From contig PS015140.1 in the NCBI GenBank assembly GCA_048213135.1, positions 62,001 to 91,466 on the forward strand: a DNA stretch of 29,466 nt. Reading direction: 5' to 3'. Source of the stretch: Reclinomonas americana ATCC 50394. Lineage: Eukaryota. This document shows positions 5,698 through 27,900 of the stretch, one piece after another. The stretch's first letter is position 1; each line of letters starts with the position of its first letter. A model generated the notes under the pieces. That model made no database searches. It was not told where the DNA came from and worked only from the letters and a program-made list of their open reading frames with translations. The translations under genes and the position numbers were made by a program.

Positions 5698-8600
5698 TTA
5701 TGAGAGGAGGACAGGCAGGGCGGCCACCGGCATGCTTTCGATGCCGTTCTCGTCGACACCACGCAAGATGCGGAAGAAACCGTCTTCACCCCACGAGCGG
5801 CCCCCTGTTCGAACAAGAGAGGGAGAGATGAGGGAGGGACAAATAGACAGGGATGTGAGGAGAGGGTGAAGAGGGAGAGAGAGAGAGAGGAGGGACGGGA
5901 GGAGAGAGAGGGAGGGGGAGGAGAGAAGAAAGGAGGAGAGAGAGGAGGAGAGAGAGAGAGAGGAGCGGTCGAGAGTGAGAGAGAGAGTGGAGAGAGAGAG
6001 AGTGTAGTACGAAACAGACGAGCAGTGAGCNNNNNNNNNNNNNNNNNNNNAGAGAGAGAGGAGGAGGAGGGAGGAGAGAAAAGGAGGGAGGAGAAGAGAG
6101 GGAGAGACAGAGAGAGGAGCGGTCGAGAGTGAGAGAGAGAATGGGAGAGAGAGAGAGTGAGTTGAAACAGACAGCAGTGAGCGATCGAACGAGAAGGACA
6201 AACAGACAGGCGAGGGAAAGGAAGAGAGAGAGAGAGAGAGAGAGAGGTGCAGGTAGTGGAAGAGAGGATAGGAGGGTGCAAGCCGAATGCATCTTCGGGA
6301 AGAAAGGAGCGAGGAAGAGAAAGAGAGTGTGCATGAACAAACGGACGCAACAAGAGTTCTGCACGATCCAGTAGCGATCGACCTGTCGTGTGGTCTCGTT
6401 CAGTTCCTCGCCCCATCCAACTGCAAGCGAATGGATCAGGCATAGGCAACGGAAACGAAAAAGCACTGAAGTGACAAACCAATGAGGACGGCGTGCGTAG
6501 TGGGCTCGAAAGAATGTCGCCACGATGAGTGCATGTGCTGGTTGGCCAGCTTGCGGTAAATGCCGGACGAGTACAGGCTCCATTCGCCCGTCTACATCGC
6601 AAAGAGTGAGTGGACGAGGAAGAGAGAGAGAGTGACGGGCGAGACAACTCTTGTCACAAACCGCGGCAAAGCAGGCGGCGATCGGACCGTTTCGCAGGAT
6701 TTCCTCCATCATCGATTGTTCGGTGGCCGCGCCGAAGAAGCCTGACGAGGGGGGAAGGGGAGGAAGAGGGTAAAGGTGAGCGGGAGAGAGGGAAGGGGGG
6801 AAAGGGAAAGGGAAGAGGGAAGAGGGAAGAGGGAAGAGGGGAAGAGGGAAGAGGGAGAAGAAGAGGCAGAGGAAGAGGAAGAGGAAGAGGAAGAGGAAGA
6901 GGAAGAGGAAGAGGAAGAGGAAGAGGGAAGAGGGAAGAAGGAAGAGGGAAGAGGGAAGAGGCAGGGGCAGAGATCGAAGAGGATGAAGCGGTAGAGGAAA
7001 ACGGAGAAGAAAGAGGAAGAGGGACACAGAAGAGGGGAAGAATGAAGATGAGGACTGCGAGAGCGTCGGAAACGACGAAAGAAAGAACGTACAGTCAGGG
7101 ACAGTCAGTTGGAAGAAGTGAGACAGAGAGACTGAGAAAAGAAAGAGTGCAGAACAAGCGAATGCACGAATGCAGCCGCAAACTCACCGCCGACATAATA
7201 GTAATCAGCAACTTGGACGACACGACGACGACCGCACGAGCCGCGGCATGTGTAGGTGTCGCTGCCCTTGTATGGCTGGCACGACTGTATCGAGGGGTAA
7301 AGAGACAAGGTGAGTGGGGAGAAGGGCAGGGGGAAGGGAGGGAAGTTCTCGACATAAAACAGAGAGAGAGAGAGAGAGCCACAACTAAAGGCCAGCACTG
7401 CACTTGTCCTCCCTGCTCACCTCATCAACCGCGCCAAACGAATGCGCAAACTTGGAGGCCAAGTACGGCCACCCACCGCCGCATCCTTGCGACCAGGGTG
7501 AGCACGAGAGAGCCCGTTGTGGCGAGAGTGTCAGCTGCGCACGCCCAAGTCAGCAACTGTGGTCATGCAATGGCGACGCAAGAGCGACGCACCTGTTCCT
7601 TGTTCTTTGTCGACACTCGCAGACGTGCCTCCAGCATTGCAGTGGTGGCCACCGAGTAGCTGAAGAAGAATGAGTGTCACGGAGGAGCGCGATGGCGAAG
7701 ACTTGCCACTCACCAGCTGCCACAGGCACCTTGCGTGCTGTTGCACGAGGTGGATGAGATGCAGATCTTTGCTTCAGTCACAAACGAAAGCACTAACCGA
7801 ACAGGTGGCACAAAGTTCTCGCCATTCACATTGCGCCAGTCAAAGAAGCGCGGCAAGTGGGAGGTCTCGATATTGGTGAGGTAGCCAGTGGAAATGGCCT
7901 GCATAACGAGGAAAGATGAGCACAACAGATGAGGCCTTGCGATTCATGATTGCACACACCGATGCGTGCGCCGCACGAGCTGCGCTACCGGCGCGATGGT
8001 GCCGGCCTCCTGACATGAGTTGTTGCTGTGGAATGCAAGAGCGCAAGGTGAGCATACAACATGGAAGGATACGAGATGCTCCGACAAGCGACAACTATTC
8101 AACTCCACGTGGGGCACTCTATTACTAATTCTATTCCAGCAACATTCCCTCTCTTCGTCATCTCAAGAAGGAGAGAAGGCAATAGAAAAAAGAGATACAC
8201 AGAGACAGAGACATGCAGGCAGACATACATACACAACGGGAGAAAGTGACAGACAGACAGACAGACAGACAGACAGACAGACAGACAGACAAGCAGACAA
8301 ACAAACAAATGTACAAAGAAAGAGAGACGAACAGACAACACTTCGAAACTAACAACCAGTAATGCTGAGAAAGAGAGACAAACACTTCGACACAAACAAG
8401 CAGAAATACAAAGACAGAGAGGCAAAGACAGCCAGACAATCGACTTAGCACCAGAAATTCAGAAAAAGAGAGACAGAAACACAAACAACCAGAAATGCTG
8501 AGAAAGAGACAAATACTGCGACACAAACAAACAGAAAATGCAAAGAAAGAGAGACAAACGCTACGACGCAACAAACAGAAATACAAAGCGAGACAAACAG

Positions 8601-24900: not shown

Positions 24901-27900
24901 TCTTGTGCGCGTTGTGATGTCGCTCACAGTCGTTCGGTGCAGAAGGTCAAGGCATTGAGCAAGAGCTCACGAGAGCGCCGGGACGAGACGCCACCCGCAC
25001 CTCCTGCTGCAGAATCCAGCAACAAGAAGAAGGAGGAGGTAGCCGACGTGGACGAGGAGGACGAGGTGCATGTGGTGGAGATGCCGCGGCCATCCTCCGG
25101 GCCTCCTCGTGCCGGCAAGCGCGGTCGGCCACGATGGATTCCCGTGCCGACAGCGCCAATCGCCCCCAAACCTGTGACAGCACTCTCTCCCTCACCGGCA
25201 GCCGCAGAAAAAGGACGTGGCGCCAAGAAGGCCAAGAAGCAGAGGAAGAAGAAGGGCAGGAAGCTGGGATCGTCGTCGTCATCGTCCTCGTCGTCGTCCG
25301 ACGAGGATTTCGTGGCCGGAAGCGAGAGCGGTGCCGGGGACGACGGGGATGACGACTTGGAGGACTTCGAGCTGGTCAAGGAGTCGCACAGTTGCGCTCG
25401 TCACGCTTGTTCTCGTTTTTCATTCCTCGACCTGACCGTGTGGCGATGCAGAGTCGGATCGCAAGCAAAAGGGCACGCCGGTGCGAACCAGCCGACGCAA
25501 TCGCAAGCCGACGACTCATTTCCTCGACGAATTGGAGTCGACAGAGAAGAAGGGCAAGAAGCGGAACAGGTGCAGTGGAGTGCAGAGTGCTGGCAAAAAG
25601 CGATATTTTTGTGTCTGAACTTCCTGCGCAGCGGCCGTCTGCCGTCACTCTCCGCCGCCTCCTCCTCGTCCGAGTTGGATTCGGATTCAACCGGTCGTGG
25701 CAAGAGAATGTGCGTGGGAGTTGTCGCCTGCAGTGTGTTTAATTTGCTTTGTCATCAGACTCCTTGCTGGACGCAGGTCCGTCGACAAGGTGATGCCGTT
25801 GAACCTCGACGAGGAGTCGCTCCCGAGCGACGATGACAAGAAGAAAAAGAAAAGAAGAAGAAGGAGGTGGAAGAGGAGGAGCAGGAGGAGGTGCAGGAGG
25901 AGGAGGAAGAGGCAGCGGCGGAGGAGCCGGCTCCCGAGAGTGCGGAGGCGATGGAGGAGGATCAAGAGGTGGAGCAGGAGGAGGAGAAGAAGCAGGAGGA
26001 AGAGGAGGAGAGGGAGAAGGAGGAGGAGGAGGAAGAGGACGAGGACGATGAGAGGGAGAGGAAGTCAGCAAAGAAGAAGAAGAAGGGAGCGTCGCGGAGT
26101 GAGCGTCCGCCGCCGTCGGATAACACCAGGCTCAAGTCGAAGAAGTCGAAGAGGTGCGTGGATTGAGGGGAAGGGATGGAGGGAAAGGGAATAGGGAGTA
26201 AGGGATGGAGGGGAAGGGATGGACGGGAAGAGGTAGAGGGGAAGGATGGAAGGGAAGGGATGGAGGGGAAGGGATGGAGGGGAAGGGATGGAGGGGAAGG
26301 GATGGAGGGGAAGGGATTGAGGGGAAGGATTGTGGGGAAGGGATGGAGGAGAAGGGATAGAGGGGAAGGGATGGAGGGGAAGGGATTGAGGGGAAGGGAT
26401 GGAGGGGGAAGAGATGAAGGGGAAGGGATGGAGGGGAAGGGATAGAGGGGTAGAAGGGAAGGGATGGAGGGGAAGGGATGGAGGGGAAGGGATGGAGGGG
26501 AAGGGATTGAGGGGAAGGATTGTGGGGAAGGGATGGAGGAGAAGGGATAGAGGGGAAGGGATGGAGGGGAAGGGATTGAGAGTGAGGTGACGGAAGGGGA
26601 ATTGTGAAGGTGATGATGAACACAACACACTCCAACAAACCTCAGGCGATCAATGGCCTGTGCACCGTGCACAATCNNNNNNNNNNNNNNNNNNNNNNNN
26701 NNNNNNNNNNNNNNNNNNNNNNNNNNNNNNNNNNNNNNNNNNNNNNNNNNNNNNNNNNNNNNNNNNNNNNAGGATGAGGAAGGATAGGGTAGAGGAGGAG
26801 TGGAGGAAGGATGGAGGGAAGGATGGAGGGAAGGATTGAGGGAAGGATGTGGGAAGGGATGGAGGAGAAGGGATAGAGGGAAGGGATGGAGGGAAGGGAT
26901 TGAGGGAAGGGATGGAGGGGAAGAGATGAAGGGGAAGGGATTGAGGGGAAGGGATTGAGGGGAGGAGATGGAGGGGAAGGGATTGAGGGGAAGGGATTGA
27001 GGGGAAGGGATGGGTACAAAAGAACAGTTAAGACGTAAAAGAATGTGGAGTGAGCGAAGGATGAACGAGAACATGTAAATAAGGGAGTACAGAATGGACA
27101 TGCTTGTCACTGCAATAGATTGAGAAGAAAAGAAAGGGGCAAGGGAAGATGTCGAAGAAGACGAATGGAGAGGATATTTTTCCCTCTGCCTTTCTCGCGA
27201 CCCCCTTTCCTTGTTCTCCTCCTCCCGATAATGCGCGTGTGCCAGTCTTCTGTCTTCTCTTCTTGATACACCTTTCAGCAAGAGAGAGCGCGCGCAACTT
27301 TGTTACCTCCACGACCTCTCATGAATGTGGAGAGAGAGAGGGTAGAGTGAAGTAAATGAGAGATGGAGGTAGGAGGAGGGCGATTCGAAGCATCTGAGGA
27401 AGGAGGTAGGAGGGGTGAGGGAAAGGCGAGAAGAGGACGGAGAAGAGGGAGAGAATAGCAGGTGAGGCTGGGGAGAGGAGCAGATGAATATCGAGAGGAA
27501 AGCGTGAGCTGAGTGCAAAGTACGAGCCCTTCCCTCTTTTGTCTCTCACCGGTGTTGCACTTTGACAGGTCACGAGAGGCGGAGGTCGCCGACGAGTCAG
27601 CCGCAGACACTCCGGCCTCGCCTCGCCCCGAGTCACCGCCACGCAAGCAGGCCAAGCACAAGCAGGGCAGCATTGCCTCGCGCGCTGCCGCTGGGACGCC
27701 ACCAGTGGAGAGCCTCACCAAGCAACCCTCCTCGTCCTCCTCCAGCAAGAACGGCAAGAGCAAGCCGTCGGTGGAGTCACCGCAAGTCACCAAGGTGTCG
27801 GTGCCCGAGGTGACGGTGGATTCGGACATGTCCGAGTCGCCAGCGCCGCCCAAGCCGATGAATGGCAAGCAGCGACGTGAGAAGGAACGGCTCGCCAAGC

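Follow-up and report, generated by a model that had tools for sequence, protein, structure and literature searches.

We examined the 5' splice sites of a 29,466-nucleotide stretch of eukaryotic nuclear DNA from Reclinomonas americana ATCC 50394 (GenBank assembly GCA_048213135.1, contig PS015140.1, positions 62,001 to 91,466 of the forward strand; hereafter the window) and found that eight of its 37 modelled introns begin with a donor that lacks the G at position +5 and has a G at +6 (8/8), mostly with T at +3 (7/8) and T at +7 (6/8). The other 29 introns (78%) have +5G. On balance, and with confidence only a little above even, we favour the view that these displaced donors are read by the ordinary U1 small nuclear RNA (snRNA) in a non-canonical register, either shifted or bulged. 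The window itself has a G+C content of 43-60% (in 2-kb windows) and contains numerous N gaps and microsatellites.

Exon ends were set by coordinates in four genes, which gave two introns in an NLR-like gene, 14 in a gene for cathepsin C (dipeptidyl peptidase I), eight in a Rab14/Rab4-like GTPase gene and 13 in a large acidic/basic low-complexity gene. We refer to donors with +5G as class I and to those without +5G, in which +6G is present, as class II. A preliminary description of this DNA had counted 38 introns, 30 of them with +5G; the coordinate models give 37 and 29, and the eight sites without +5G are the very ones it had named, at the same positions and with the same letters. Acceptors are uniform, with CAG in 36 of the 37 introns and TAG in one.

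Half of the displaced donors lie in genes whose junctions can be compared with homologous proteins. The cathepsin C gene (5698..10828, minus strand; 15 exons, 566 amino acids) has +5G at 13 of its 14 donors, and its model matches the homologue P0133 with E=2.8e-96 (phmmer). A word-index homologue search with one cathepsin C exon gave no match, and an exhaustive HMMER search then yielded the cathepsin C homologues. The Rab gene (16477..20503, plus strand; nine exons, 210 amino acids) has +5G at five of its eight donors, and its model could be aligned to eight Rab14/Rab4 homologues with all junctions free of gaps. When metagenomes were scanned with exon 7 of Rab, 80 loci were returned, the best of them just 59% identical; these were left out of the intron comparison. 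For the introns of both genes, every combination of a GT or GC donor with an AG acceptor that lay within 36 nucleotides and preserved a stop-free frame was generated (Rab, 85 variants; cathepsin C, 148), and the resulting spliced proteins were scored against profiles built from homologues only (64 Rab4/14 and 26 cathepsin C proteins). At all eight Rab introns and at 12 of the 14 cathepsin C introns the modelled junction came out on top; the choice at cathepsin C introns 4 and 6, where the protein is not conserved, is ambiguous to within about 1 bit.

The four class II donors of these two genes, which the preliminary description had considered fixed by protein conservation, were borne out by this scoring, with margins of 5.3 to 20.3 bits over every alternative. 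In cathepsin C, the donor at 6351 (tctt/GTTGCGT, 6345..6351, minus strand) opens intron 14, of 547 nucleotides, which joins ..IVQNS(W) to GRSWGEDG and is 7.0 bits ahead among eight in-frame variants. The remaining three are in Rab, on the plus strand. The donor at 16616 (aata/GTTGCGT, 16616..16622; intron 2, 388 nucleotides) leads six variants by 5.3 bits, with no gap at the junction relative to the eight homologues. At 17049 the donor (ccag/GTTCAGT, 17049..17055; intron 3, 71 nucleotides) follows an exon-final G, gives the junction HQFQ/EQKF and leads 30 variants by 7.5 bits, and at 19019 (aaca/GTTGAGA, 19019..19025; intron 7, 71 nucleotides) the junction FAEEN-K-LRYIE leads 12 variants by 20.3 bits. 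Two of the sites have ordinary-looking in-frame donors nearby, namely GTTTGT at 6342 (minus strand), 9 nucleotides downstream of 6351, which scored 15 bits lower and would disrupt the NSW motif, and GTGTGT at 16649 (plus strand), 33 nucleotides downstream of 16616, which scored 17.5 bits lower. By homology, these GT..G donors are not used.

Two further assignments of the displaced sites were tried and rejected. A GC donor three bases into the intron (GTT/GCGT) lost 5.3 bits at 16616 and 7.0 bits at 6351, and at 25391 it makes a stop codon. Minor (U12-type) introns carry the donor motif (A/G)TATCCTT, which was present at none of the eight sites.

The other four displaced donors are putative and belong to the large gene (21951..28712, plus strand; 14 exons, 13 introns), which has +5G at nine donors and was modelled as an open 11-exon chain from an ATG plus three further downstream exons. 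Pfam searches of its exons, and of the middle gene of the window (11001-12516), returned two weak low-complexity matches and no domains, and a homologue search with exon 3 found none. The putative donor at 24536 (tgca/GTTTCGT, 24536..24542, class II; intron 4, 61 nucleotides) is placed both by the frame chain and by intron architecture, having a TCTCAC branch-like motif and a GCGCAG acceptor; it also has an in-frame rival, GTACGC at 24541 with an AG ending at 24598, which is a weaker acceptor two bases on. The frame chain only places the putative donors at 24886 (caag/GTTTCGT, 24886..24892, after an exon-final G; intron 7, 57 nucleotides), 25391 (caca/GTTGCGC, 25391..25397, class II; intron 8, 61 nucleotides) and 25570 (acag/GTGCAGT, 25570..25576, without +3T; intron 9, 62 nucleotides). 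A GT with +5G occurred in 0 of 40 in-frame variants at 24886, in 0 of 15 at 25391 and in none of the in-frame alternatives at 25570.

GT sites without +5G, of which the window has 2347, served as background for the displaced G; 30% of them have +6G and 5.5% both +3T and +6G. At these frequencies T+3/G+6 would occur by chance at all four homology-verified sites with p about 9e-6, and +6G at all eight sites with p about 7e-5. The motifs are not enriched across the window, where GTTGCG occurs 21 times (16.6 expected) and GTTNNGT 47 times (45.9 expected), and the signal is therefore positional only. On the strength of the sequence analysis we regard the displaced-donor class in the window as confirmed to be real, beyond chance for the homology-verified four.

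The makeup of the displaced donors points to an ordinary donor moved inward. Class II sites have G in four, C in two and T in two at +4, C in five and A in three at +5, G in all eight at +6, and T in six with one A and one C at +7. This composition mirrors that of class I at +3 to +6 (20 G, six T, two A and one C at +3; 12 A, nine C and eight T at +4; 29 G at +5; 22 T, six C and one A at +6). Deletion of one T from the seven GTT sites leaves words belonging to class I, in which GTGCGT is the commonest word (8/29). The classes also differ in the last base of the preceding exon, which is G at 25 of 29 class I donors versus three of eight in class II (Fisher p=0.0115). The same difference is seen in the homology-verified genes alone (16/18 versus 1/4; p=0.024) and when class II is restricted to the GTT..G sites (2/7; p=0.0056). 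Among the five class II exon ends without G, four have A and three have CA.

We propose the following mechanism for these U2-type GT-AG introns. The ordinary donor word (G, U, G/U, A/C, G, U) would be displaced one base inward behind an extra U, and the 5' end of ordinary U1 snRNA would bind such donors in a non-canonical register, with G+6 and U+7 pairing with C4 and A3, the U1 bases that are paired with +5 and +6 at ordinary donors. In a shifted register, probably favoured after an exon-final A and especially after CA, G+1 would pair with C9, U+2 would be mismatched against C8 and U+3 would pair with A7; the CA exon ends support this register because U10 and G11 of U1 would pair with them. 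In a bulged register, probably favoured after an exon-final G, G+1 and U+2 would be paired as usual and U+3 would be bulged out. U1 would mark the site only, and later U6/U5 steps would then place the cut at the GU. The sequence analysis shows the sites, their composition, the homology backing of four of them and the association with the exon-final base; the pairing register, the U1 sequence of this organism and the later U6/U5 steps are inferred. Shifted and +2/+3 bulge registers of U1 are both experimentally established in human cells (PMC4856993).

For a view of the possible pairing, each donor was folded against the textbook U1 5' end, which may differ from that of this organism. The shifted register was modelled at 19019 (-4.9 kcal/mol), 24536 and 25391, and ordinary junction pairing together with +6G:C4 and +7U:A3 was modelled at 17049, 24886 and 25570 (-4.4 to -10.0 kcal/mol). 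The duplex at 25570 (-10.0 kcal/mol) runs in the ordinary register from the exon end to +3 and then from +5 to +8 over a bulged +4 C. We conclude that the eight sites are not one class: the five after a non-G exon end are shift-like, the two of the form G/GTT..GT (17049 and 24886) are bulge-like, and 25570 (CAG/GTGCAGT) stands separate, pairing well in the ordinary register with a +6G that may be incidental. The preliminary description had suggested a bulged or shifted register for all eight. That suggestion gains support from the composition, from the exon-final base and from the duplex model, in which six of the eight are shifted or bulged, and it has to be amended in that the sites are heterogeneous and 25570 needs no special register.

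Several observations weigh against recognition by ordinary U1 in a non-canonical register. The modelled duplex is near zero at the two purest sites, 6351 (+0.5 kcal/mol) and 16616 (-0.2 kcal/mol), and the pairs modelled at the latter are an off-register artefact alone; as far as the model goes, textbook U1 by itself would explain these two sites poorly, and a different U1 or other factors may be involved. An exon-final G precedes three of the eight displaced donors, including the homology-verified 17049, and the shifted register is therefore not the whole story. Non-G exon ends are found with ordinary GTG(A/C)G donors at 9061, 16501, 24411 and 25710, and the extra T is therefore not obligatory. 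The four sites of the large gene (24536, 24886, 25391 and 25570), plausible as they are, make up half of the class and lie in one gene beyond homology checking. The number of sites is also small, and A at -1 was tested post hoc.

Both registers have human counterparts. The human shifted (+1) sites (Roca and Krainer 2009, via Tan et al. 2016, PMC4856993) keep the GU as the cut site, as do the eight modelled donors here, four of them with junctions fixed by homology, and in them every U1 pair is displaced by one position, with G+1 in place of the exon-final G. The CA/GTT sites of the window (19019, 24536 and 25391) fit this register in shape and in modelled pairing. However, shifted sites are rare in humans, whereas displaced donors begin about a fifth of the introns here; moreover, in the present case, which is described at the level of sequence, the second base after the cut is a U able to pair with A7, and an exon-final G precedes two of the seven GTT sites. 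The one-nucleotide +2/+3 bulge register (Roca et al. 2012, via PMC4856993) comprises GUU followed by a normal tail, with one U bulged and the junction normally paired. Seven of the eight sites here have GTT, and G/GTTCAGT (17049) and G/GTTTCGT (24886) fit this register, but its exon-end pairing, of the -1 G with C9, is kept at only two of the seven GTT sites. Predicted human +2/+3 bulge sites number 68, curated to 54 (PMC4856993, table 3), as against seven of 37 introns in a single window here.

The preliminary description had hinted at an unusually permissive or variant U1/U6 system. We considered whether an altered U1 5' end, or an extra U1-like RNA, could pair directly with GUUGCGU, such that two RNAs or one tolerant RNA, and not slippage, would account for the displaced donors. 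Textbook U1 forms hardly any pairs with tctt/GTTGCGT (6351) and aata/GTTGCGT (16616), and there is a precedent in Entamoeba and Mastigamoeba, where U1 co-evolved with transformed donors (Roy and Bowser, bioRxiv 10.1101/2022.06.08.495308). Those donors likewise depart from GTAAGT; the Entamoeba donors have +3T, as here, and the GUGCG-type Mastigamoeba donor with +4C resembles class I. Each of these lineages, however, combines a single near-universal atypical donor with a changed U1, whereas in the window two classes coexist within the same genes (8 versus 29 of 37), and class I is ordinary except for its variable +3 and +4. Class I makes up 78% of the donors and a standard-like U1 must therefore exist. 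A search of the window with Rfam at gathering thresholds gave no match to an snRNA or other RNA gene, so nothing here speaks for a variant snRNA. The same source describes an apusomonad and Mamiellales as having a C-rich +4 donor, a preference that class I shares, together with the standard U1 5' end. Among three lineages that similarly prefer +4 C, two thus retain that 5' end, and this published work argues that a variant U1 is not required (bioRxiv 10.1101/2022.06.08.495308). Overall, we think it unlikely that a co-evolved or second snRNA is responsible.

Another explanation places the decisive reading of the displaced G and U mainly after U1, or without it, with the ACAGAGA box of U6, or proteins, tolerating an extra base between GU and G. 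Beyond the GT, class I introns are invariant only at +5G (29/29) and near-invariant only at +6U (22/29), and these two positions are the partners of U6. The link between class and exon-final base, on the other hand, is expected from pairing with U1 C9/U10 and not from U6. In human introns, U1 may bind away from the cut site with U6 then fixing the cut, and a U1-independent human intron is cited, but the U6/5' splice-site helix is argued to have far less room for alternative registers (PMC4856993). We hold this explanation, too, to be improbable. More doubtful again is a genome-wide two-register donor code, in which one word would serve two cut positions and the second register would have a dedicated second U1-like snRNA, an altered U1 5' end or U1C; if true, such a code with dedicated machinery would add to U1 and U11 another way of recognising 5' splice sites.

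Very little probability attaches to artefact or chance, that is, to an overcalled T or to mis-modelled introns with a coincidental +6G. In favour of it, N gaps are numerous in the assembly, the large gene has at least one frame break beside A runs, half of the eight sites are without independent support, one of them (24536) with an in-frame alternative, and the motifs show no enrichment across the window. Against it, four sites are fixed by homology with a chance probability for T+3/G+6 of about 9e-6, and TT is no long homopolymer. The coding sequences of cathepsin C and Rab, some 2.3 kb together, contain zero frame errors, and an overcall would have to have inserted a T at seven of 37 donors; a random overcall would also be independent of the exon-final base (observed p=0.012).

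Further occurrences of the displaced words were noted in the window. The preliminary description had listed GTTTCGT at 11871, and it is indeed there, where an open frame ends. For the surrounding middle gene (11001-13750, plus strand) no frame-consistent model could be built; no frame-compatible acceptor was found for 11871, and the GT sites at 13153 and 13156 were likewise unplaced. This gene also contains a threefold coiled-coil-like repeat, AQL(R/K)QHH.EDV, at about 12270-12390. A further GTTGCGT at 15371-15377 (plus strand) precedes the Rab start codon by about 1.1 kb and could be the donor of an intron in the 5' untranslated region of Rab. Downstream of the Rab stop codon, a direct repeat of about 120 bp was seen by eye at about 21040-21300.

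Exon 11 of the large gene (window 25777-26153) contains an internal frame break beside A runs, the A-rich run lying at about 25836-25860. The frame entering the exon (..DEESLPSDDDKKKKK) is one base off from the frame required to leave it (KKKEVEEEE..SKKSK), which suggests an assembly indel in a homopolymer, a small unmodelled intron or a wrong model downstream. The NLR-like gene (314..5110, minus strand) has two introns near its 5' end, with donors at 5104 and 4742 that both have +5G; intron 1 is unproven because it is in frame and stop-free. The 3' part of this gene (314-2300, minus strand) encodes 14 WD40 repeats that are highly alike in DNA (Pfam WD40, E=9.5e-165). With regard to intron structure in general, short introns of 54-74 nucleotides (for example 7660-7713, 17246-17316 and 25391-25451) have a CT(G/C)AC-like motif about 12-25 nucleotides before the acceptor, and long introns of 390-1420 nucleotides consist mostly of purine or pyrimidine microsatellite with N gaps.

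Our literature search, which had subscription-only papers and bioRxiv supplements outside its range, found no description of this donor class. The GTT..G(T) class and its link with the exon-final base are described neither in the consulted text of bioRxiv 10.1101/2022.06.08.495308 nor in that of PMC11347168, a survey in which several protists have many unexplained low-scoring, 'non-canonical' donors. The new aspect of our finding is the high frequency of a type of donor recognition that is itself known, its layout in humans being familiar only from rare sites. If true, the use of displaced donors at about a fifth of the introns of a free-living protist would provide a natural system for studying how U1 binding is uncoupled from the choice of the cut site, and would also inform on how much slack U6 tolerates and on the co-evolution of donors and snRNAs. 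With gene finders whose training is on GT..G donors, about 20% of this genome's introns would be called wrongly, and such errors may partly explain the 'non-canonical' introns scored in some protists (PMC11347168).

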